This document shows, piece after piece, positions 2,370-20,059 of a DNA stretch of 64,000 nucleotides. The DNA comes from Clostridia bacterium. GTDB lineage: Bacteria > Bacillota > Clostridia > Christensenellales > CAG-1252. The notes under the pieces are model-generated. The model was not told where the DNA came from, did not search any database, and saw only the letters and a program-made list of their open reading frames with translations. The DNA is taken from NCBI GenBank assembly GCA_024685775.1, contig JAIKVL010000007.1, positions 15,627-79,626 on the forward strand. Direction: 5' to 3'. A program made the position numbers and the translations under genes. How positions within the stretch are numbered: the stretch's first letter is position 1; each line of letters begins with the position of its first letter.

Positions 2370-3830
2370 TTACTTGCGATAGGTCGCCGGGCTGAACAAA
2401 ACGATCAACGGGAAGATCTCCAATCTGCCGAACAGCATTTCGAGCGAAAGGACGATTTTGGAGAAAGAAGAATATCCCCCGAAGTTTGCCGCAGGACCGA
2501 CGAGGTCGAAGCCGGGACCGATGTTGCTGATGCAGGAAAGAGACGCGGAGAAATTCGTCAGGAAGTTTCCGAAGCCTTCGATAGAGACGAGCAGGGTGCA
2601 GGCGATGAGGATCGCGACCCAGGTCACGAAGAATACGCGCACGCTGTTTATAATGCCGCTTTCGACGGGTGCGCCGTCGAGCTTGACCGTTATGATTTCG
2701 CGCGGATGCACCATTTTGCGAAGATCCGCCGCGGTGGATTTAACGAGGATCAAGATCCTTGACATTTTCATACCGCCCGCCGTGGAGCCCGCCATACCGC
2801 CCATCGTCATCAGGAAAAGCAGGATGACTTTCGAAAGGGTGGGCCAAGAATTATAGTCGATCGAAGAAAAGCCCGTCGTCGAAGACAAAGAGAGGACTTG
2901 GAAGGAAGAATGACGAAGCGCTTCGCCGAAGGAACGGATCGCCGTTTCCGCGGAAAGGTAGACGTTGACCGCGATCGCAAGCATACTGACGACGACGACC
3001 GAGACGTAGACGATCGCTTCCTCGCTCTTCAAGGCTTTTAGGACGTGACCGGTCAGGAGCAGGAAGTACAGATTGAAATTCAGAGAGAATAAGAACATAA
3101 ACGTCGAAACGACGATCTCGATGTAAAGGCTGTTGTACGAAGCGATGCTCGCGTTGCGGACGCTGAATCCGCCCGTTCCCGCGTTTGCGATCGCGGTCGT
3201 GATCGCGTCGAAGATCGGCATTTTCCCGATCGCGAGGAAAGCGAATTCGATCAAGGTCAGCGCGATATAGATCCCGTACAGGATGCGCGCGGTGTGCCCC
3301 ATCTTCGAGGTAAGTTTGCCGACGGAAGGTCCGGTCGCCTCGGCGCGGAAAACGTGCATCATTCCCGAATTGCTCTTCGGAAGGACGGCGAGAATGAAGA
3401 CGAGGACGCCCATTCCTCCGATCCAGTTCGTAAAGGAGCGCCAGAAAAGGACGCTGTGCGGCAGGCTTTCGATGTCGGAAAGGACGGACGCGCCCGTCGT
3501 CGTAAAGCCCGAGATCGTCTCGAACAGGGCGTCCACGTAGTTCGGGATCGCTTTGGTCAAGACGAAAGGCATCGCGCCGACGAGGGACATCGCGAGCCAA
3601 GAAAAGGCGACGATCGCGAAGCCTTCTTTCGCATAGATATTGTTTTCCACGCCTTCGGTCTTCAAGAGGAAAGAGGGAACGGACAAAAGGAGTAAAACGG
3701 CGATCGGGATCGCGAATCCGAGGAAGGTGGATTCGCCGTAGATCGCGGCTACAATCAAAGGAAAGAGAAGCATAACGGCTTCCGCGATCAAGATCTTTCC
3801 GAGAGTTTTAACGACCGTTTTCCAGTTCAT
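2370..3830 (-). CDS. trkH: TrkH-family potassium uptake membrane subunit
   Basis: Multi-TM protein with pore-loop motifs FETISGFTTTG, NAGTGGFS, SSTTGF, SNIGPG; adjacent to trkA. Confidence 0.95.
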   Translation of the reverse strand: MNWKTVVKTLGKILIAEAVMLLFPLIVAAIYGESTFLGFAIPIAVLLLLSVPSFLLKTEGVENNIYAKEGFAIVAFSWLAMSLVGAMPFVLTKAIPNYVDALFETISGFTTTGASVLSDIESLPHSVLFWRSFTNWIGGMGVLVFILAVLPKSNSGMMHVFRAEATGPSVGKLTSKMGHTARILYGIYIALTLIEFAFLAIGKMPIFDAITTAIANAGTGGFSVRNASIASYNSLYIEIVVSTFMFLFSLNFNLYFLLLTGHVLKALKSEEAIVYVSVVVVSMLAIAVNVYLSAETAIRSFGEALRHSSFQVLSLSSTTGFSSIDYNSWPTLSKVILLFLMTMGGMAGSTAGGMKMSRILILVKSTAADLRKMVHPREIITVKLDGAPVESGIINSVRVFFVTWVAILIACTLLVSIEGFGNFLTNFSASLSCISNIGPGFDLVGPAANFGGYSSFSKIVLSLEMLFGRLEIFPLIVLFSPATYRK

Positions 3831-3832
3831 AA

Positions 3833-5185
3833 TCAGCGTAAAATCTGTTTGAGTTCGGCGACTTGCTTTACGGCGGTGACGACGAGGACTTTATCTCCGA
3901 GAAGGAGAGCCGTGTCGCCCGAGGGGAGGATGAATTCGCCGCCGCGGACGATCCCGCAGAGAAGGACGTTCGCTTTGATCTTCAATTCTTTGATGGGAAC
4001 GCCGATCTTCGGGAAATCTTCGCCGACGGTAAATTCGATGGCTTCGGCTTTGTCGTGGATGCGATAGAGCGCGTTGATGCCCGCGCCGTCTTCGACTTGG
4101 TGCGCGCGCACGAATCGGACCAAGTGATCCGCGATGACTTCGCGCGGGGAAAGGACGGTGTCCAGCCCGAGCTTCATGACCATTTTCGCAAGCGGGGTAG
4201 ACGTGATCTTCGTGACGACTTTCGCGCCGCCGAGCGAGGTCGCGTAAAGGGAGACGACGGCGTTTTCTTCGTCCACGCCCGTCAAGGTGACGATGGCGTC
4301 CGCTTCGCGAATGCCTTCTTCATCAAGGACGGCGGTATCCGTCCCGTCCGCGCAAATGACGGTGGCGTGGGACAGCGCTTCGTCCAAATAGCGGCAACGG
4401 TCCTCGTTGATTTCGAGGATCTTGACTTTGACGCCGTTTTCGAGAAGTTCTTTCGCGAGATAGTAAGAGATATTTCCGCCGCCGACGATCATGACGGATT
4501 TCGCGCGTTGCTTGAAGATCTTCATCTTTTTCGAAAAATCGAGAAGTCCCGTTTCTTCCGCGGCGACGTGGACCAGATCGCCTTCTTCGATCACGAAGTC
4601 GCCTTTGGGGATCACGACTTTTCCCGCGCGGGAGACGACGGCGAATAAGAGCGCGCCGCCCGATTTTTTCGCCGCGTCCATAACGGTCAATCCCGCGATG
4701 GGGCTGTTCGGCGCGATGCGGAATTCCGTCAGCGCGACTTTTCCGGATTCAAAAGAATCCGTCGAAATGGCGGAAGGAAACTTTAAGATCTGGGCGATCT
4801 CCATCGCCGTCCTGTGTTCGGGGTTGAAGATCATATCGACGCCGAGCTCGGACGTCAAACTTTCGAGGGATTTTAAGTACTCGGGATCGCGCGCTCTCGC
4901 GACGACGTGTTTCGCGCCCATCTTTTTCGCGAGGACGGAAGAAAGGATATTGAGCTCGTCGCGCAAGGTGCAGGCGAAAAAGCAATCGGCTTTATCGACT
5001 TCCGCTTCTTCGAGAACGCTTCTGTCGAGACAGTTGCCGACGACGCCTTTCGCGTCCGACTTATTGACGAGGTCTTCGACCGTGGCAAAATCTTCGTCCA
5101 CTACCGTTACGTCGTGATTTTCTTTAATAAGGCGGGTCGCGAGCGCTCCGCCGATCTTTCCGATACCAACGATGACGACTTTCAT
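3833..5185 (-). CDS. trkA: TrkA potassium uptake RCK subunit
   Basis: Two Rossmann motifs (IVGIGKIG, IVGGGNIS), two RCK_N/RCK_C pairs, 450 aa. Confidence 0.95.
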   Translation of the reverse strand: MKVVIVGIGKIGGALATRLIKENHDVTVVDEDFATVEDLVNKSDAKGVVGNCLDRSVLEEAEVDKADCFFACTLRDELNILSSVLAKKMGAKHVVARARDPEYLKSLESLTSELGVDMIFNPEHRTAMEIAQILKFPSAISTDSFESGKVALTEFRIAPNSPIAGLTVMDAAKKSGGALLFAVVSRAGKVVIPKGDFVIEEGDLVHVAAEETGLLDFSKKMKIFKQRAKSVMIVGGGNISYYLAKELLENGVKVKILEINEDRCRYLDEALSHATVICADGTDTAVLDEEGIREADAIVTLTGVDEENAVVSLYATSLGGAKVVTKITSTPLAKMVMKLGLDTVLSPREVIADHLVRFVRAHQVEDGAGINALYRIHDKAEAIEFTVGEDFPKIGVPIKELKIKANVLLCGIVRGGEFILPSGDTALLLGDKVLVVTAVKQVAELKQILR

Positions 5186-5363: not shown

Positions 5364-5388
5364 ACACTTACAACAGAATAATCATTCA

Positions 5389-5680
5389 AAGGCTGTGACG
5401 AAGTCCGTCTTGATCGAAAACTTCTTTCAGAGATCCGGTGGTTGGTGCGAACCGGTAGAAACGATCGTAGATTATCCCTTCCGAGCCGAAACCCGAAAGC
5501 TTTGTCGTGCTCCACGTCGGCGGCAGTAAAAAGAGCGAGTAGGCGTTTCCGTGACGCTGCGTTAATGCTAAGGGATTGATAGATTCCGAAAAAGAGAGGC
5601 GAATTTCGGTTCGCAATTTGAGTGGTACCGCGGGATAACACCCGTCTCAAAGCAGATGTTTTGAGGCGGGTTTTTGTTTT
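5389..5680 (+). ncRNA. T-box riboswitch, predicted Ile (AUC) specifier
   Basis: GA/K-turn (GGCTGTGACGAAG...CTTCCGAGCC), AGAGA box 5429, apical GGTGCGA loop, specifier loop GATT-ATC-C (ATC 5474-5476), T-box AGTGGTACCGCG 5621-5632, terminator CCCGTCTCAAA...TTTTGAGGCGGG plus T-run 5641-5680. Confidence 0.92.
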
Positions 5681-8060: not shown

Positions 8061-10349
8061 ATGGAAAAAACAGATTTGGACGGAAAGATCAAGGAGATGG
8101 CGGAAAGGATCCGCGAGCTGAGAGAGATCGAAGGGCTTTCGGTCTCCGATATGGCGGAGAAGACCGGCGTTTCCGAAGAAGAGTACGCGAAGTGCGAAAG
8201 AGGGGAAAGCGATTTGAACTTTACCTTCATCTATCGTTGCGCGAAAGCGTTCGGCGTCAACGTTACGGATATCATCGAGGGCTATTCTCCGATGCTGAAT
8301 TCCTACACCGTAACGCGCGTCGGATCGGGGCAAAAGATCGCTCAGGCGCACGGGATGACCTACTATAACCTTGCGTATGCTTTCCAAAACAGGATCGCCG
8401 AGCCGCTTTTCGTAAAAAGCGTTTACGATGCGGATAAAGCCGCGAAGGGAGAGATCGAGCTCACTTCTCACGCCGGGCAGGAATGCGACGTCGTGATCGA
8501 CGGCGCCCTGATGGTCCAAGTCGGCAGCCATACCGAGGTCCTCTACCCCGGCGACAGCATTTATTACGACAGCGGCACGCCGCACGGCATGATCGCGGTC
8601 GGCGGCAAGGACTGCACGTTTTACGCGATCGTCCTGAATCCGAGCGGTGAGCCCATTCCCGAGCTTACGCCCGTCAAAGCGATCGTGGACGAGAACGTCC
8701 AAAAGGGCGACGATAAGGATCGCGCCTATAAAAAGTTCATCGACGTCGTCGAGAACGAGCACGGAACGCCTACTTTCATTAAGTTTAAGAACACCGAAAA
8801 CTTCAATTTCGCGTTCGATATCGTGGACGAGGTCGCGAAGCGCGAACCCAACAAGATGTGTATGCTCCACGTCTCGAAGGATATGACCGAAAGGCGCTTC
8901 ACCTTCCTCGATATGAAAAAGGCGTCCAACCGTTGCGCGAACTATTTTAAGTCGCTCGGGATCAAGAAGGGAGATCGCGTCCTTCTCGTTATGAAGCGCC
9001 ACTATCAATTCTGGTTCGCGATGCTCGGACTCAATAAGCTCGGCGCGATCGCGATCCCGGGAACCAACCAGCTTTTGGAACACGATTTCGAGTATCGCTT
9101 CAATTCGGCGGAGATCGAAACCGTGATCTGCACCGCGGACGGTGATACCGCGCACCAAGTCGATCTCGCCGCGCCCCGTTGCCCCTCTCTCAAAAACAAA
9201 CTCATCGTAAACGGGACGAGGGAAGGTTGGCGCAATTTCGACGAGGAATATCCTCTGTACAGCACCCACTTCGAGCGCACGGAGTCTTCGCCGGGCGGCG
9301 ACGACACGATGCTGATGTTCTTTACGTCGGGAACGTCGGGATATCCGAAGATCGCGAGACATAACTACAAATATGCGCTCGGTCATTTCCATACCGCGAA
9401 ATATTGGCATAACGTCGATCCGGACGGCTTGCATTTTACGATCTCCGACACCGGTTGGGCAAAGGCGATGTGGGGCAAACTGTACGGGCAATGGCTTTGC
9501 GAAGCGGCGACCTTCGTTTACGACTTCGATCGCTTCGACGCGGCGACCATTCTTCCGATGTTCGCGAAGTATCATATCACGACGTTCTGCGCGCCGCCGA
9601 CGATGCTTCGCATGATGATCAAGCAGGATATTTCGAAATACGATTTTTCTTCCGTCCGTCATATGACGACGGCGGGCGAAGCGCTGAACCCCGAGGTCTA
9701 TCGCCAATTCGAGAAAGCGACGGGGCTTCAAATCCTCGAAGGTTTCGGCCAGTCCGAAAGCACGATGATCATCGGCAACCTCGTCGGCGCGCCGCATAAG
9801 ATCGGATCGATGGGTAAGCCCGCTCCGATCTACGACGTCGCTTTGATGGATTCCGAAGGAAAGATCGTCGGCGACGGCGAGACGGGCGAGATCGTCATCA
9901 GCCTGAAAAACGGTTCGCCGATCGGTCTCTTTACCGAGTACTACCGCGATCCCGAAAAGACCAAGGAAGCGCGCCACGACGGTTATTACCACACGGGCGA
10001 TCTCGCTTGGCGCGACGAAGACGGCTTCTACTGGTACGTCGGCAGAGCGGACGACGTCATCAAGTCGTCGGGTTACCGCATCGGACCGTTCGAGATCGAA
10101 AGCGTCATTATGGAGCTTCCCTACGTCTTGGAATGCGGCGTTTCCGCCGTTCCGGACGAGGTCAGAGGGCAGATCGTCAAAGCGAGCATCGTCCTGACGA
10201 AAGGGACCGAGCCGTCCGACGAACTCGTCAAGGAGATCCAAAATTACGTCAAGCAACATACCGCGCCGTATAAATATCCGAGGGTCGTCGTCTTCCGCGA
10301 CGAACTCCCGAAGACGACGAGCGGAAAGATCCAAAGAAACAAACTTTGA
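8061..10349 (+). CDS. XRE-HTH + cupin + acyl-CoA synthetase fusion, copy 2
   Basis: Same architecture and motifs as copy 1 (HAGQEC, FTSGTSGYPK, YHTGD, PKTTSGK); tandem paralog. Confidence 0.9.
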   Translation: MEKTDLDGKIKEMAERIRELREIEGLSVSDMAEKTGVSEEEYAKCERGESDLNFTFIYRCAKAFGVNVTDIIEGYSPMLNSYTVTRVGSGQKIAQAHGMTYYNLAYAFQNRIAEPLFVKSVYDADKAAKGEIELTSHAGQECDVVIDGALMVQVGSHTEVLYPGDSIYYDSGTPHGMIAVGGKDCTFYAIVLNPSGEPIPELTPVKAIVDENVQKGDDKDRAYKKFIDVVENEHGTPTFIKFKNTENFNFAFDIVDEVAKREPNKMCMLHVSKDMTERRFTFLDMKKASNRCANYFKSLGIKKGDRVLLVMKRHYQFWFAMLGLNKLGAIAIPGTNQLLEHDFEYRFNSAEIETVICTADGDTAHQVDLAAPRCPSLKNKLIVNGTREGWRNFDEEYPLYSTHFERTESSPGGDDTMLMFFTSGTSGYPKIARHNYKYALGHFHTAKYWHNVDPDGLHFTISDTGWAKAMWGKLYGQWLCEAATFVYDFDRFDAATILPMFAKYHITTFCAPPTMLRMMIKQDISKYDFSSVRHMTTAGEALNPEVYRQFEKATGLQILEGFGQSESTMIIGNLVGAPHKIGSMGKPAPIYDVALMDSEGKIVGDGETGEIVISLKNGSPIGLFTEYYRDPEKTKEARHDGYYHTGDLAWRDEDGFYWYVGRADDVIKSSGYRIGPFEIESVIMELPYVLECGVSAVPDEVRGQIVKASIVLTKGTEPSDELVKEIQNYVKQHTAPYKYPRVVVFRDELPKTTSGKIQRNKL

Positions 10350-10399: not shown

Positions 10400-10440
10400 A
10401 ACAAAATACGCCGAAGGCGGTGAAAAAAAAGGGGAAAACA

Positions 10441-11115
10441 ATGGTCGAAAAGCGAATCACGATGATCTTGGGGCATTACGGAAGCGGAAAAACGAATATC
10501 GCCGTAAACCTCGCGCTCGCGCTGAAAAAGGCGGGGAAAAACGTCGCGATCGCCGACCTTGATATCGTCAACCCGTACTTCCGGACGAAGGACAGCCTTT
10601 CCGTCCTCGAAGAGGCGGGCATTCGCCTGATCTCCTCCGAGTACGCGAATACCAACCTCGACATTCCCGCTCTTCCGCAAGATATGTATGCGGTGACGGA
10701 CGATAAGAGTTTGACCTGCGTCCTCGATATCGGCGGCGATGATCGCGGCGCGCTCGTCCTCGGCAGGCTTCGCCCCGGCATCGTGGAAGAGGGAAATTAC
10801 GAGATGCTCCTCGTTATCAATAAATACCGTCCGCTGACCCAAGACGCGCCTTCGACCATCGAAGTCATGGCGGAGATCGAGGCGGCGGCGAATATGCGTT
10901 TTACGGGGATCATCAATAATTCCAACCTCGGCGCGGAGACCACTGCGGAAACCGTTTCGGATTCCCTCGAATATGCGCGCGAGATCTCGAAATTGACTTC
11001 GCTCCCGATCGTTATGACGACGGTGAAAGAAGAATTGATCAAAAAGCTGGAAGGAAAAGCGGAAAACCTCTTTCCGCTGACTTTACAGAAAAACTTTATA
11101 GAGAGTAAAATTTGA
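10441..11115 (+). CDS. P-loop NTPase (MinD/CobQ-like) of unknown function preceding the oxidoreductase genes
   Basis: Walker A GHYGSGKT, then DLDIVNPYFR and LDIGGDD; ATG 10441 preferred over GTG 10420. Confidence 0.8.
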   Translation: MVEKRITMILGHYGSGKTNIAVNLALALKKAGKNVAIADLDIVNPYFRTKDSLSVLEEAGIRLISSEYANTNLDIPALPQDMYAVTDDKSLTCVLDIGGDDRGALVLGRLRPGIVEEGNYEMLLVINKYRPLTQDAPSTIEVMAEIEAAANMRFTGIINNSNLGAETTAETVSDSLEYAREISKLTSLPIVMTTVKEELIKKLEGKAENLFPLTLQKNFIESKI

Positions 11116-14800: not shown

Positions 14801-16174
14801 ATGAATCAAGTGAAAATAACGGCAAGGCTTTGCGGAAATGAGAACGAACTGACGTTCAAAGAGAAATTCGAGATCGCGCGCTTGCTGGAAAAGCTATGCG
14901 TGGACGTTATCGAATTCCCCGCTCTATCGGGAAATAAAGAAGACGCCTTGCTAATTCGTACTTGCGCGTCCTTTATCAAAAACAGCGTTCTTTCCGTCCC
15001 CGTGCTCTCCGCGGCGCAGGCGGACGAAGCGGCTGCGTGCCTTTCGGGCGCGAATAACGCCGCATTGCGCGTCGAGCTCAGCGTCTCTCCCGTCGGGATG
15101 GAATATTTCCACCACAGAAAGGCGCCGAAGATGCTCGAACTCATCAAAGAACTCGTTTCTTACGCCGCGTCCAAGGCGAAGAAAGTGTATTTCTGCGCGC
15201 TCGACGCGACGCGCGCCGAAGAAGAATTCTTGAAGAGCGCGCTTCTCGCGGCGGAAGAAGCCGGCGCGAAAGCCGTCTATCTTTCGGACGACGCGGGCGA
15301 AATGCTCCCGGACGAGTTCGCGCTTTTTGCGGAAAAATTCGGAAAGGTCGTCGGCGTTCCGATCGGCGTCGCCGTCTCGAATAAGAGCGGATTTGCGCTT
15401 TCTTCCGCGGTGCTTGCGGTCAGAAAAGGCGTTAAAGCCGTCAAAACCGTGCTTTCGGGCGACGGGATCTCTCTTCAAGCGTTCGCGAACTGCATCAAAA
15501 ACAGCGGCGCGAGAAACGGGATCGCGCTCGGCGTTACCTATACCGAACTCAATCGTATTATCGCGCGCGTAAACGGCATTTCGGACGGCGGCGAGGGCTC
15601 GGCTCCCTCCAAAGCCGAACTCGGCGACGCGCCTTTCGTCAATTTGGACGAAAACGATAATAAGGAAGCCGTCACGGAAGCGGCGGCGAAACTCGGCTAC
15701 GATCTTTCAAACGAAGATCAGACGAAAGTGTACGAGGAATTCCTGCGCGTCGCGAATAAGAAAAAGAGAGTCGGCGCGAAAGAACTCGACGCGATCATCG
15801 CTTCGGCGGCGCTTCAAGTCCCCGCGACGTACAAGCTCGTCAGCTATGTGATCAATAACGGCAACATCATTCATTCTTCCGCGCAGATCGCCTTGCAAAA
15901 GGGCAATGAGACGCTCGCGGGCATCTCGATGGGTAACGGACCGATCGACGCGGCGTTCCTTTGCTTGGAAAGCATTTTGGGGACGCATTACGAGCTCGAC
16001 GATTTCGAGATCCAGTCGGTGACCGAAGGAAAAGAGGCGATGGGCTCCGCGCTCGTCAAACTCCGCAAAGACGGGAAACTCTATTCCGGCAAGGGTATTT
16101 CGACCGATATCATCGGGGCTTCGATTCGCGCCTATCTCAGCGCGGCGAATAAGATCGCATACGAGGAGGAATAA
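14801..16174 (+). CDS. LeuA (2-isopropylmalate synthase)-like protein with degenerate catalytic domain and intact C-terminal allosteric domain
   Basis: EKFEIARLLEKLCVDVIE matches the LeuA N-terminus but DTTLRDGxQ is absent; HxHND reads AVSNK; C-terminal GNGPIDAAF...GKGISTDIIGASIRAYLSA. Confidence 0.85.
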   Translation: MNQVKITARLCGNENELTFKEKFEIARLLEKLCVDVIEFPALSGNKEDALLIRTCASFIKNSVLSVPVLSAAQADEAAACLSGANNAALRVELSVSPVGMEYFHHRKAPKMLELIKELVSYAASKAKKVYFCALDATRAEEEFLKSALLAAEEAGAKAVYLSDDAGEMLPDEFALFAEKFGKVVGVPIGVAVSNKSGFALSSAVLAVRKGVKAVKTVLSGDGISLQAFANCIKNSGARNGIALGVTYTELNRIIARVNGISDGGEGSAPSKAELGDAPFVNLDENDNKEAVTEAAAKLGYDLSNEDQTKVYEEFLRVANKKKRVGAKELDAIIASAALQVPATYKLVSYVINNGNIIHSSAQIALQKGNETLAGISMGNGPIDAAFLCLESILGTHYELDDFEIQSVTEGKEAMGSALVKLRKDGKLYSGKGISTDIIGASIRAYLSAANKIAYEEE

Positions 16175-16176
16175 CG

Positions 16177-18705
16177 ATGAAACTTTCATTTTCCACGAAG
16201 GGTTGGCATCACTCCTCCTTCGATGATTTTTGCGACTACGCCTGCGATCTCGGATTCGACGGCGTGGAACTTCATAACATCCATAATAAACTTTTTACCG
16301 ATAAAGACGGCGCGTTTCACGATTACGCCGCGGCGGCGACGCTTCGCAAACTGTACGAGAAGAAATTGTCGCTTCCCTGCATCGACGCGATCTGTGACGT
16401 TGCGACGGTAAACGGAAGGGAAGAAGCGATCGAAGAGATCGGGAAATGCGCGGAGATCGCGCAGAATCTTCATATCCCCTACGTCCGCGTTCGCGCCGAA
16501 GCGCACGAGGATGAGGCGCAAGCGGACGAGCGCGTTCGCTCGTTGATCGCGGAAGTCCTTCCGATCGCCGAAAAAGCGGGCGTGACCATCGTTATGGAAA
16601 CCGCGGGATTGTACGTCAGCAGCGCGCGTCTTCGCGATCTTTTGCAAAGCTTTGCCTGTGATTCTTTCGCCGCGCTTTGGAATTTCTCCGCCGCTTACTT
16701 CGGTTCGGGCGAGGCTCCCGAAAAAGTCATCGAGAACCTCGGCGCCTACGTTAAGCACGTTCACTTGAACGACGCGAAAAAGACCCGAGACGGCGCGATC
16801 GAGTACTCTCTCCTCGGAGAGGGCGATCTCCCCGTCAAGGATATGATGGCGGCGCTTTCTTCCGTCAATTACGACGGATTTATTTCCCTCGTCTGGCATC
16901 CGGATTGGTGCGGCGAACTCAAAGACATCGAGATCATTTTCGCGCAATTCGTCGGCTTTATGAAGCAATTCGGCGACACGGCGAAAGGAGAGAAGTCTTT
17001 ATACTGGAATCGCAGACATACCGGTAAATTCGTCTGGAAGAAGGAAATCTTGATCGACGAGACTTTCCCCGCCGTCCTCGACAGAATGTGCGAAGAGTTC
17101 CCCGATCAGTACGCATTTAAGTACACGACCCTCGATTACACGAGGACCTACGTCGAGTTCCGCAGAGACGTGGACGAATTCGCCCGCACCTTGATCGCGC
17201 TCGGCGTCAAAGCCGGATCGCACGTCGCCGTTTGGGCGTCCAACGTCCCACAATGGTATATCGCGTTTTGGGCGACCGTTAAAATCGGCGCCGTCCTCGT
17301 GACGGTCAACACGGCGTACAAGATCGCCGAGGTCGAATACCTTTTGAAGCAGTCCGACACGCACACGTTGATCATGACCGAAGGTTCGAAAGATTGTCAT
17401 TACGGCAAGATCATCGCGCAGCTTTGCCCCGAGCTTTCGGAAAAGAAACCTTCCGATCCGTTGCACGCAAAGCGTCTTCCTTTCCTCAGAAACGTCATTA
17501 CCGTCGGCTATCGTCAGCCCGGTTGCTTAACTTGGAGTCAAGCGATCAAACTCTCCGAAAAGGTCAAGCAGGAAGAGGTCTTGCGTATGGCGGCGGCGGT
17601 CAATAAACACGACGTCTGCAATATGCAGTACACGTCCGGAACGACGGGCTTCCCGAAGGGCGTCATGCTGACGCACTACAATATCGTAAATAACGGCAAG
17701 TCGATCGGCGACCGTATGGATCTTTCGACGGCGGACAGAATGATGATCCAAGTCCCGATGTTCCATTGCTTCGGAATGGTCCTCGCGATGACCGCGACGA
17801 TGACGCACGGCGGCACGCTTTTGCCCCTGCCGTACTTCTCGCCGAAACCCGCGCTCGCTTGCATCAATAACGAGCATATCACTGCGTTCCACGGCGTCCC
17901 GACGATGTTTATCGCGCTTCTCGAACACCCCGATTTCCCGAAGACGGACTTCTCGTATATGAGGACGGGCATTATGGCGGGTTCGCCTTGCCCGATTTCC
18001 GCGATGCAACAGGTCGTCGAGAAAATGAATATGAAAGAGATCACGATCGTCTACGGGCAGACCGAGGCTTCCCCGGGTTGCACGATGAGTTCGACGGACG
18101 ATCCGATCGAGATCCGCGTCGGGACGGTCGGCAGACCGCTTCCCGAAATCGAGTGCCGCATCGTAAATCCCGAGACGGGCGAAGATTGCCCCGACGAAGT
18201 TACGGGCGAATTCTTGGCGCGCGGCTATAACATTATGAAGGGATACTATAAGATGCCGAAAGCGACCGCGCAGGCGATCGATAAGGACGGCTGGCTCCAC
18301 ACGGGCGACCTCGCTTGCAGGACGAAAGAAGGGAACTTCCGCATTACGGGCAGGCTCAAAGATATGATCATTCGCGGCGGCGAAAACATCTATCCGAAAG
18401 AGATCGAGGAATTCATTTACACCCATCCGAAGGTCTCGGACGTTCAAGTCATCGGCGTCCCGGACGAGTCCTACGGCGAAGAGATCATGGCGTGTATCAT
18501 CCTGAAAGAGGGTGAGACGATGACCGCGGACGAGATGAAAGCCTATATCGGCGCGAATATGGCGCGCCATAAGGTCCCGAAGTACGTCGATTTCGTTACG
18601 TCCTTCCCGATGAACGCCGCGGGCAAGATCTTGAAGTATAAAATGCGCGAGGACGCGATCGCGAAACTCGGGCTTCAAAAAGCGAACAGCATCGAAACGG
18701 CTTGA
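16177..18705 (+). CDS. xylose isomerase-like (AP_endonuc_2) TIM barrel fused to acyl-CoA synthetase
   Basis: N-terminal GFDGVEL...VMET...HVHLND...GEG; C-terminal YTSGTTGFPKG, HTGDL, GRLKDMIIRGGENIYP, AGKILK. Confidence 0.88.
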   Translation: MKLSFSTKGWHHSSFDDFCDYACDLGFDGVELHNIHNKLFTDKDGAFHDYAAAATLRKLYEKKLSLPCIDAICDVATVNGREEAIEEIGKCAEIAQNLHIPYVRVRAEAHEDEAQADERVRSLIAEVLPIAEKAGVTIVMETAGLYVSSARLRDLLQSFACDSFAALWNFSAAYFGSGEAPEKVIENLGAYVKHVHLNDAKKTRDGAIEYSLLGEGDLPVKDMMAALSSVNYDGFISLVWHPDWCGELKDIEIIFAQFVGFMKQFGDTAKGEKSLYWNRRHTGKFVWKKEILIDETFPAVLDRMCEEFPDQYAFKYTTLDYTRTYVEFRRDVDEFARTLIALGVKAGSHVAVWASNVPQWYIAFWATVKIGAVLVTVNTAYKIAEVEYLLKQSDTHTLIMTEGSKDCHYGKIIAQLCPELSEKKPSDPLHAKRLPFLRNVITVGYRQPGCLTWSQAIKLSEKVKQEEVLRMAAAVNKHDVCNMQYTSGTTGFPKGVMLTHYNIVNNGKSIGDRMDLSTADRMMIQVPMFHCFGMVLAMTATMTHGGTLLPLPYFSPKPALACINNEHITAFHGVPTMFIALLEHPDFPKTDFSYMRTGIMAGSPCPISAMQQVVEKMNMKEITIVYGQTEASPGCTMSSTDDPIEIRVGTVGRPLPEIECRIVNPETGEDCPDEVTGEFLARGYNIMKGYYKMPKATAQAIDKDGWLHTGDLACRTKEGNFRITGRLKDMIIRGGENIYPKEIEEFIYTHPKVSDVQVIGVPDESYGEEIMACIILKEGETMTADEMKAYIGANMARHKVPKYVDFVTSFPMNAAGKILKYKMREDAIAKLGLQKANSIETA

Positions 18706-18778: not shown

Positions 18779-20059
18779 ATGGGGATCATCATCCTTTCCG
18801 TTTGCACGGTCGCGCTGTTTATTCTCTCGGTGCTTTTGAAGCCCGAGATCAAAATCGGAAAAATCAAGTTCGATAGCTTTTTTCTGTTCCCGCTCGTCGG
18901 CGCGATTCTTTGTCTGTCGCTCGGATATCTCCCGCTTTCCGATCTTATGTCCGCGCTGTTTTCGAAAGGGGAGATGAACCCTTTGAAGATCCTCGTTTTG
19001 TTCTTCTCGATGACCGTTATGAGCCTGTATTTGGACGAAGCGGGGTTTTTCCGTTACCTCGCGGCGAAGAGCGCGGGGTCGTCCGGGAAGCTCGGGTTTT
19101 TCATCCGAATCTACGCGCTCGTCTCCATTCTGACGATCTTTACTTCGAACGACGTCGTGATCTTGACCTTTACTCCGTTTATTTGCGCCTACGCGAAACG
19201 GCTTCGAATTTCGCCGTTCCCGTATCTTATGATGGAATTCGTCGCGGCGAACACTTGGAGTATGCTTTTCATCGTCGGCAATCCGACGAATATTTATATC
19301 GCCGCCTCGCTCGGCACGGATTTTTTCCATTACTTGAAGATTATGTTTCTCCCCGCGATCGCCGCGGGCGGCGTTTCTTTTCTCGCGCTGTTGCTTTTGT
19401 TCAAAAACGAATTGAAGGAGCGCGCCGAACTCGCGCCGATCGAAGAGAAGATCGAACTCGATAAACCCCTCGTCGCGCTCTCTTTGTCCGCTCTCGGGTT
19501 ATGCGTTCTCGCGCTCGTCGTCAGCTCCTTCCTGCCAAACGTTCAAATGTGGTATATTTCGCTCGGATTCGCGCTGCTCTTGACGGTGGTCGTCGCCGTC
19601 GTCCGCCTCGCAAGAAAGGAAAAAGCGAAGTATTTGTTCGCCGCGTATAAAAGGCTTCCGTATGCGATCGCGCCTTTTCTCGTGTCGATGTTTATCCTCG
19701 TCCTTGCGCTGAAAGAGCAAGGAGTAACGGCTAGAATCGCTTCTTTGATCCCGAATGAAGGGGAGATCTTTTCCTACGGCGGCATCTCCTATCTCGCCGC
19801 GAACCTTTTGAATAACATCCCGATGAGCGTCCTTTTCGCGGAGATCTGCCCGACTGCGGGCGCGAAGTTCGCCGCGATCGTTTCTTCGAATCTCGGCGCG
19901 CTCCTAACCCCCGTCGGCGCGCTCGCCGGCATTATGTTTACCAAGATCACCGCGACATACGGCGAAGAGATCAAGGTTTATAAATTCGTCCTTTGCGGCG
20001 CGGCGGTCTCCGTTCCCGCGCTTGCGGCGTCGCTCGGCGCGCTTCTCGTGACGCTGTAA
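18779..20059 (+). CDS. ArsB/NhaD (ion transporter superfamily) anion permease
   Basis: About 11-12 hydrophobic segments; SNDVVIL, VGNPTNI, NNIP, NLGALLTPVGALAGI. Confidence 0.85.
   Translation: MGIIILSVCTVALFILSVLLKPEIKIGKIKFDSFFLFPLVGAILCLSLGYLPLSDLMSALFSKGEMNPLKILVLFFSMTVMSLYLDEAGFFRYLAAKSAGSSGKLGFFIRIYALVSILTIFTSNDVVILTFTPFICAYAKRLRISPFPYLMMEFVAANTWSMLFIVGNPTNIYIAASLGTDFFHYLKIMFLPAIAAGGVSFLALLLLFKNELKERAELAPIEEKIELDKPLVALSLSALGLCVLALVVSSFLPNVQMWYISLGFALLLTVVVAVVRLARKEKAKYLFAAYKRLPYAIAPFLVSMFILVLALKEQGVTARIASLIPNEGEIFSYGGISYLAANLLNNIPMSVLFAEICPTAGAKFAAIVSSNLGALLTPVGALAGIMFTKITATYGEEIKVYKFVLCGAAVSVPALAASLGALLVTL

Follow-up and report, generated by a model that had tools for sequence, protein, structure and literature searches.

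AsbF, the 3-dehydroshikimate dehydratase of petrobactin synthesis in Bacillus anthracis (PDB 3dx5), is a xylose-isomerase-like barrel whose product is adenylated by the ANL enzyme AsbC, and it provides a precedent for a barrel of this type working with a ligase. The same type of barrel forms the N-terminal part of an ANL acyl-CoA synthetase encoded at positions 16177-18705 (forward strand) of the window, by which we mean the whole 64,000-nucleotide stretch of the Clostridia bacterium contig JAIKVL010000007.1 analyzed here. The gene for this fusion protein lies directly behind that for a catalytically dead homologue of 2-isopropylmalate synthase (LeuA). It is an unusual, derived member of a widespread, uncharacterized enzyme family, and the new result of this study is that decay of the catalytic site of the barrel is restricted to the lineage that carries the dead LeuA. 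We put the probability at about 0.55 that the system as a whole is a leucine-linked isovalerate ligase with a non-catalytic barrel, the latter being the point of contact for a leucine sensor derived from LeuA.

Among solved structures, the family profile matches AsbF best, with E 7.5e-25 across the entire domain, followed by the isomerase Art22 (PDB 8z1i, 9koj; 3e-22), and the intact members of the family share the R-E-D..H-H.K-E pattern of AsbF. The window barrel, which lacks three of the catalytic positions, is itself only a weak match to AsbF (E 0.25); its top single-sequence match is Art22 (E 3e-8), which is also the top match of its structural model in Foldseek (E 3e-15, 23% identity, template modeling (TM) score 0.75), with AsbF ranking high in the same search. 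Art22 differs from the window protein in that it stands alone, has about 280 residues and retains two metal-site residues, the Asp and the final Glu; we found no paper describing its reaction. The differences from AsbF lie in the setting as well as the site: no asb cluster is present, barrel and ligase form one polypeptide, and the context is that of leucine and branched-chain metabolism instead of siderophore synthesis. The assignment of the window protein as an AsbF-type 3-dehydroshikimate dehydratase was rejected, given the eroded site and the branched-chain metabolism genes that surround it.

For the ligase half, the closest described system is MbcS of Staphylococcus aureus (NF047394), an ANL ligase that activates isobutyrate, isovalerate and 2-methylbutyrate (PMC10026030). 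The reaction that we propose for the fusion ligase is of the same kind, and two MbcS-like ligases are encoded in the same operon; the fusion ligase differs from MbcS in belonging to another ANL subfamily, with PRK12583 as its best match and 25% identity to the MbcS-like ligase of the operon, and in carrying the N-terminal barrel. The control that we propose is modeled on LeuA, a TIM-barrel enzyme whose activity is set by leucine at its LeuA_dimer domain. In contrast to LeuA, the LeuA barrel at this locus is dead, and the controlled enzyme would be an ANL ligase on a separate polypeptide with a barrel of an unrelated family; we know of no such LeuA-type control in trans.

Domain layout and catalytic site of the fusion protein

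The fusion protein is encoded by an uninterrupted frame of 842 codons, which is divided as follows (aa, amino acids).

16177-18705, forward strand: barrel-ligase fusion, whole gene, 842 aa, stop codon at 18703-18705
16177-16971, forward strand: xylose-isomerase-like barrel of (beta/alpha)8 fold at the N terminus, aa 1-265, catalytic site eroded (Pfam PF01261, AlphaFold2, Foldseek)
16972-17076, forward strand: linker, aa 266-300, conserved (N278, T282, G283, W287, K289), of low model confidence
17077-18702, forward strand: ANL acyl-CoA synthetase, aa 301-842 (Pfam, core motifs)

The ligase half is intact. The Pfam domains AMP-binding (aa 302-691, 4e-93, 312.9 bits) and AMP-binding_C (aa 742-817, 65.2 bits) span it, and the ANL core motifs are complete and invariant across 54 homologues: the P-loop TSGTTGxPKG (TSGTTGFPKG, aa 486-495), GQTE (627-630), TGD (within HTGD, 708-711), the hinge RxKDxIxxGGxN (RLKDMIIRGGEN, 726-737) and the C-terminal catalytic Lys, which lies in AGK (815-817). 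The top NCBIfam match, PRK12583 'fatty acid CoA ligase family protein' (NF009233), scores 681.7 bits, under its cut-off of 832. Since the fusion ligase is only 25% identical to the MbcS-like ligase fused to an XRE-cupin part at 8061-10349, it constitutes a third ligase of a subfamily separate from the XRE-cupin ligases, which is what the first-pass annotation, made from the DNA letters and their translations, had supposed.

The barrel scores well above the curated cut-off of Pfam AP_endonuc_2 (PF01261; aa 20-241, 9e-25, 88.2 bits against 31.1). An AlphaFold2 model of aa 1-285, with a predicted local distance difference test (pLDDT) score of 93, contains eight strand-helix units, and Foldseek matches it with probability 1.0 and TM scores of 0.72-0.78 to Art22, AsbF, IolI and UlaE, as well as to ketose 3-epimerases at the same probability. 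The labels returned by the ESM Atlas are 'sugar phosphate isomerase/epimerase' and '3-dehydroshikimate dehydratase family'.

By alignment to Art22, AsbF and 140 relatives we defined the catalytic pentad of the family as E141, D169, H172, H196 and E239. The window protein has E, N, A, H and V at these positions and so departs from the canonical Glu / Asp-x-x-His / His / Glu set: three of the five canonical catalytic or metal-binding residues are gone from the barrel (D169N, H172A and E239V).

16597-16599, forward strand: codon of E141, the first canonical metal-binding Glu, kept and invariant in all groups
16681-16692, forward strand: codons of N169-F-S-A172 in place of the D-x-H-H of the family; neither the Asp nor the His of DxxH remains (alignments)
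16762-16764, forward strand: codon of H196, the canonical His of the HxKD motif, kept (alignments)
16891-16893, forward strand: codon of V239, which stands in place of the family's final Glu, a catalytic and metal-binding residue (SLEW) (alignments)

These positions fall in the motifs VMET (aa 139-142), NFSA (169-172), HVH (194-196) and ISLVW (236-240), and the alignments to Art22 and AsbF place N169 and A172 on the D..H motif and V239 on the last Glu (SLEW in AsbF). The first-pass annotation had singled out the same motifs, reading VMET and HVH as retained and NFSA and ISLVW as altered, and had judged the metal site to be incomplete; both the reading and the judgment are borne out by position, by the alignments and by the homologues. 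Among 117 close full-length homologues, 116 have V239, 90 have N at position 169 with H or Q in most of the others, and E141 is invariant. Because the eroded site is common to these homologues, it is a fixed feature and not the product of chance or of a sequencing slip. We conclude that the barrel is very probably a derived pseudo-enzyme.

The dead LeuA partner and the pattern of erosion

The fusion gene is translationally coupled to a dead LeuA that retains its regulatory domain.

14801-16174, forward strand: LeuA-like partner, dead, with an HMGL-like barrel without RDGxQ and HxH plus a LeuA_dimer regulatory domain (Pfam, NCBIfam, motif check)
16163-16169, forward strand: Shine-Dalgarno sequence GAGGAGG, which lies in the final codons of the LeuA-like frame and 7 nt 5' of the fusion ATG, the mark of translational coupling

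The LeuA-like gene falls far under every isopropylmalate synthase cut-off while keeping the LeuA_dimer domain (5e-29, Pfam), and the RDGxQ and HxH metal motifs are absent from all 63 LeuA-like partners that we examined (that of the window and 62 others). Its stop codon at 16172-16174 leaves a gap of 2 nt to the fusion ATG at 16177. The same arrangement, with a gap of 2-12 nt, is present in 35/35 close relatives with enough upstream DNA, which are ruminant and gut metagenome-assembled genomes (MAGs) labelled Christensenella sp. UBA, Oscillospiraceae, Acutalibacteraceae and Ruminococcus. The earlier observation that the fusion directly follows another dead TIM-barrel protein is therefore upheld, and so is the co-occurrence of the two genes, which was to be checked; in the broader set described below, too, the LeuA-like neighbor stands beside the eroded barrels.

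To describe the pattern of erosion, 140 fusion proteins were typed for the five pentad positions and for whether a LeuA-like gene immediately precedes the fusion. Where this neighbor is absent, the intact pentad EDHHE is found in 73/73 fusions. The fusions with such a neighbor comprise EDHHE in 3 cases, EDYHE in 16, ENAHV (the type of the window protein) in 29, ENGRA, ENGRS or ENARA in 12, and six single variants; one more ENAHV sequence lies on a contig without upstream DNA. Every eroded barrel of the set is thus confined to the lineage with the dead LeuA. Trees of the barrel, of the ligase and of the whole protein all recover the main LeuA-like-linked clade (65 sequences) as monophyletic, with support of 0.84-0.95. 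Within it H172 is replaced by Y, A or G in separate groups, which also differ in their loop deletions, and these three replacements and differing deletions indicate several independent erosions. R104 and H196 are missing as well from the barrels of the ENGRx group. H33, D70 and H194 take the place of R33, S70 and Y194 in two of the LeuA-like-linked groups, EDxHE and ENAHV, where they are at least 95% conserved.

The barrel is intact in all 73 fusions without the neighbor and in several with it, so the state with two dead barrels is derived and not the design of the family. This qualifies the suggestion of the first-pass annotation that two neighboring pseudo-catalytic barrels form a regulatory module on the ligase: the two genes do co-occur, as that suggestion implies, but the doubly dead state belongs to some sublineages only.

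A transitional genus is represented by the loci L088 and L117 (genomes G075 and G293) and L031 (G389). Its barrels group with those of the neighbor-less fusions and are intact or nearly so (EDHHE, DNHHE), its LeuA-like gene is distant (about 35% identity), and G075 and G389, the two genomes with typed fusion loci, also hold a real LeuA. This genus should be useful for dating the duplication that gave rise to the LeuA-like gene.

We asked how erosion relates to the classical leucine pathway. No leuA, leuB or leuC scores above the NCBIfam cut-offs in the genome of the window, which is 97% complete, and a real LeuA is present in 2/38 LeuA-like-linked genomes compared with 33/71 genomes without the neighbor. 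The 38 genomes that have neither a real LeuA nor a LeuA-like neighbor nevertheless keep the intact pentad. Erosion is therefore more closely associated with the dead-LeuA partner than with the loss of leuA, and the idea that it is a mere consequence of the loss of the classical pathway was rejected as the sole cause.

The evidence indicates that the eroded barrel is still required: it remains under purifying selection, and constraint on it has been relaxed but not released. The ratio of nonsynonymous to synonymous substitution rates (dN/dS) is 0.04-0.11 for the barrel, 0.02-0.04 in most pairs for the ligase and 0.05-0.15 for the LeuA-like gene; these ratios are rough, since most pairs are saturated in dS, and the two best pairs give 0.04 and 0.06 for the barrel. 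Divergence of the barrel exceeds that of the ligase by a factor of 1.9 in fusions without a LeuA-like neighbor and of 2.6-3.6 in the groups with one. Loss of the barrel was seen in none of the relatives examined.

Leucine T-boxes, proposed role and alternatives

The operon consists of two XRE-cupin MbcS-like ligases, a P-loop protein, the VorB, thiamine pyrophosphate (TPP) and gamma subunits of a Vor-type oxidoreductase, IlvE, the LeuA-like gene and the fusion, and the whole of it is retained in those relatives whose contigs extend far enough upstream (about half). VorB (539 bits) and IlvE (482 bits) both score over their cut-offs.

At the level of the family, a barrel match (E <= 1e-10) was found in 211 of the 399 Clostridia genomes sampled and scored, and among the matches listed nearly all sit in open frames of about 820-880 aa. 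The ligase halves of the other fusions are 70-85% identical to that of the window protein, and the barrels 36-58%. T-boxes were called by Rfam and then by an nhmmer model, and those immediately 5' of the fusion, or of the pair that it forms with the LeuA-like gene, were counted. Leucine specifiers are present in 68/68 of these (65 CUC, 2 CUG and 1 CUU), from which the barrel-ligase family is predicted to be leucine-controlled. The window departs from this pattern.

5386-5652, forward strand: the single T-box of the operon in the window, specifier AUC (Ile), at the operon head

The Leu T-box that precedes the pair in relatives was not found in the window, where there is just this Ile T-box; in the window and its closest relatives alike, IlvE and the LeuA-like gene lie too close together to leave room for a leader.

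Rumen and gut anaerobes make leucine, valine and isoleucine from branched short-chain acids excreted by other microbes, and the carboxylation route from isovalerate to leucine in rumen bacteria has been known since the 1960s; these acids ('isoacids') are also fed to dairy cattle. In the literature we found no assigned genes for the isoacid-activating step. We propose that the fusion ligase would convert isovalerate, or a closely related branched short-chain acid, to the CoA thioester, that the co-encoded Vor-type 2-oxoacid:ferredoxin oxidoreductase would carboxylate isovaleryl-CoA to 2-oxoisocaproate, and that IlvE would transaminate the latter to leucine. Judged from the gene content of the operon and the T-boxes of the family, the ligase probably serves this isovalerate-to-leucine route. 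The barrel would no longer run its ancestral reaction and would be kept as a structural or regulatory domain, its most likely role being that of a platform or contact through which the leucine sensor derived from LeuA controls the ligase. In the genus without the Leu T-box, such allosteric feedback would replace transcriptional control by leucine. That the barrel forms a module with the dead LeuA is suggested by gene order and by the pattern of erosion, and we hold it to be possible but somewhat doubtful; the narrower proposal, in which the two adjacent pseudo-enzymes make up a leucine-sensing allosteric module on an isovalerate-CoA ligase, is rather unlikely.

Several points weigh against this proposal as a whole. 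The link between erosion and the dead LeuA derives from essentially one clade, so shared ancestry alone could yield it; given the relatedness of the genomes and the essentially single origin of the partner, the association, though suggestive, is not statistically secure. The dN/dS values are rough, as noted, and the residues at the strand ends that are strongly conserved in the clade (H33, N34, D70, R104, E141, H194, H196 and D199) would also fit a remodelled, still active pocket. The full-length model has a predicted TM score (pTM) of 0.59, which does not fix the domain arrangement, and a search for a three-way fusion of LeuA-like protein, barrel and ligase found none, although this is weak evidence. 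The neighborhoods of stand-alone barrels and of fusions without a T-box give no hint of the reaction of the intact barrel, and we found no paper on the barrel-ligase fusion family and no relevant ones on T-box control of acyl-CoA ligases.

If the barrel has been remodelled and is not dead, a new polar set (H33, D70, E141, H194, H196 and D199) would have been assembled after the arrival of the LeuA-like gene and would bind a metal or ligand, catalyzing or sensing something new. The conservation of H33, D70 and H194 in the EDxHE and ENAHV groups fits such a pocket, as do their location on strands 2, 3 and 7 of the model, with H33 at the C-terminal end of its strand, and the strength of the purifying selection that the barrel is under. 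In the sister group ENGRx, however, H33, D70 and H194 have disappeared together with R104 and H196, and yet the barrel is kept; no single new site extends across the clade, and the substitution patterns differ between sublineages. On balance we consider a remodelled pocket improbable. We give similarly little credence to the view that the barrel is a mere scaffold for folding, solubility or oligomerization of the ligase, unrelated to the LeuA-like protein, with the coincidence inherited from one ancestor. An ancestral reaction that made the acid may, for example, have become needless in a rumen or gut rich in free isovalerate, and the ruminant and gut MAGs named among the relatives all fall in the eroded group. 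The kinship of the family profile to AsbF, whose product is passed to AsbC, agrees with this view, and since the LeuA-like-linked sequences form one clade, the correlation comes close to a single event. It is opposed by the several independent erosions inside the clade compared with 0/73 outside it, across many families and including the 38 leuA-less genomes, and by the tight translational coupling of the two genes in every relative examined.

The remaining alternative concerns the ligase, which might not work for leucine at all but supply branched acyl-CoA primers for membrane fatty acids, in the manner of MbcS, or act in fatty acid degradation, the operon being incidental. Its best NCBIfam matches are indeed generic 'fatty acid CoA ligase' families, none reaching its cut-off. 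This must be set against the leucine specificity of 68/68 directly upstream T-boxes, the presence of Vor and IlvE in the operon, the identity of only 25% to the MbcS-like ligases of the same operon, and the LeuA regulatory domain retained by the upstream partner, which together leave it very improbable.

Should the two adjacent pseudo-enzymes prove to form a leucine-sensing module on an isovalerate-CoA ligase, this would give the isovalerate-to-leucine carboxylation route an identity at the level of genes and a new type of feedback, exerted by a pseudo-enzyme in trans on an ANL ligase. The occurrence of the family in about half of the sampled Clostridia, with its leucine T-boxes, makes it a strong candidate for the isoacid-activating step. 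Cooperation between the two dead domains would provide a clear case from nature of former enzymes put to new use as a regulatory module; without it, the comparison of intact with eroded barrels still offers a ready-made experiment on the function of the intact barrel. By analogy with AsbF, which passes its product to an ANL enzyme for adenylation, it is conceivable that the intact barrel makes or senses the acid substrate of its ligase.

Family contexts and neighboring genes

The genes upstream of fusions without a T-box vary, and include ArgB/ArgC, DapA/DapB, an EPSP-synthase family member, a FakA-like protein, Iso_dh, an AraC regulator and a GGDEF protein; because of this variation we recognize no conserved operon outside the LeuA-like-linked clade. 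At locus L094, which has no LeuA-like neighbor, an Iso_dh (LeuB-like) gene (2825-3904, reverse strand) lies directly 5' of the fusion with no T-box between them, and this adjacency is another link to leucine genes. Stand-alone relatives of the barrel, of ~270 aa and 28-33% identity, are found in unrelated contexts (VanZ, glycosyltransferases, 6-phosphogluconate dehydrogenase, an amidohydrolase and a transposase), and the distant fused forms P0199 and P0192 begin at contig starts.

T-boxes of other specificities accompany some of the loci. In Oscillospiraceae relatives a second T-box with a GUA (Val) specifier precedes the second XRE-cupin ligase (L001 at 1301-1556; L045, L046, L047, L053, L054, L058, L062, L064 and L071 at about 1230-2270), and most of these loci also have the Leu T-box before the LeuA-like/fusion pair. 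The lineage of the window has neither the Val nor the Leu T-box and has kept the Ile (AUC) T-box alone. In the ENGRx group an Ile-type (AUC) T-box begins just 3' of the fusion (L134, 4561-4699; L145, 4537-4696), which implies that another T-box-controlled gene follows the fusion at these two loci.

Within the operon of the window, a 231-aa P-loop protein of CbiA/ParA/NUBPL-like type is encoded at 10420-11115 (forward strand), with the two XRE-cupin ligases on one side and the Vor genes on the other. Wherever relatives have the full operon, the protein is encoded at this same position, with 53-89% identity; it may serve in maturation of the oxidoreductase, as a factor of the Fe-S or nickel type. 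At 18779-20059 (forward strand), 73 nt 3' of the fusion, lies the gene for an anion permease of the CitMHS/ArsB family, a possible branched-acid transporter. A copy with 73% identity follows the fusion at L037; none was detected in the remaining close relatives for which the contig continues beyond the fusion.

Elsewhere in the genome of the window (G000) there are two other HMGL-like genes, one Iso_dh gene and one aconitase in a 750-aa frame (contig C17, 69921-70940; C29, 2945-3298; C20, 22202-23311; C38, 43062-44360), which look like genes of a glutamate branch or of a carboxylase rather than of the leucine pathway. Finally, at L048 (9386-10126; labelled Christensenella sp. UBA3770) the fusion frame stops after 311 aa and the barrel match ends at aa 249; this short frame possibly reflects a frameshift, an assembly error or a pseudogene.

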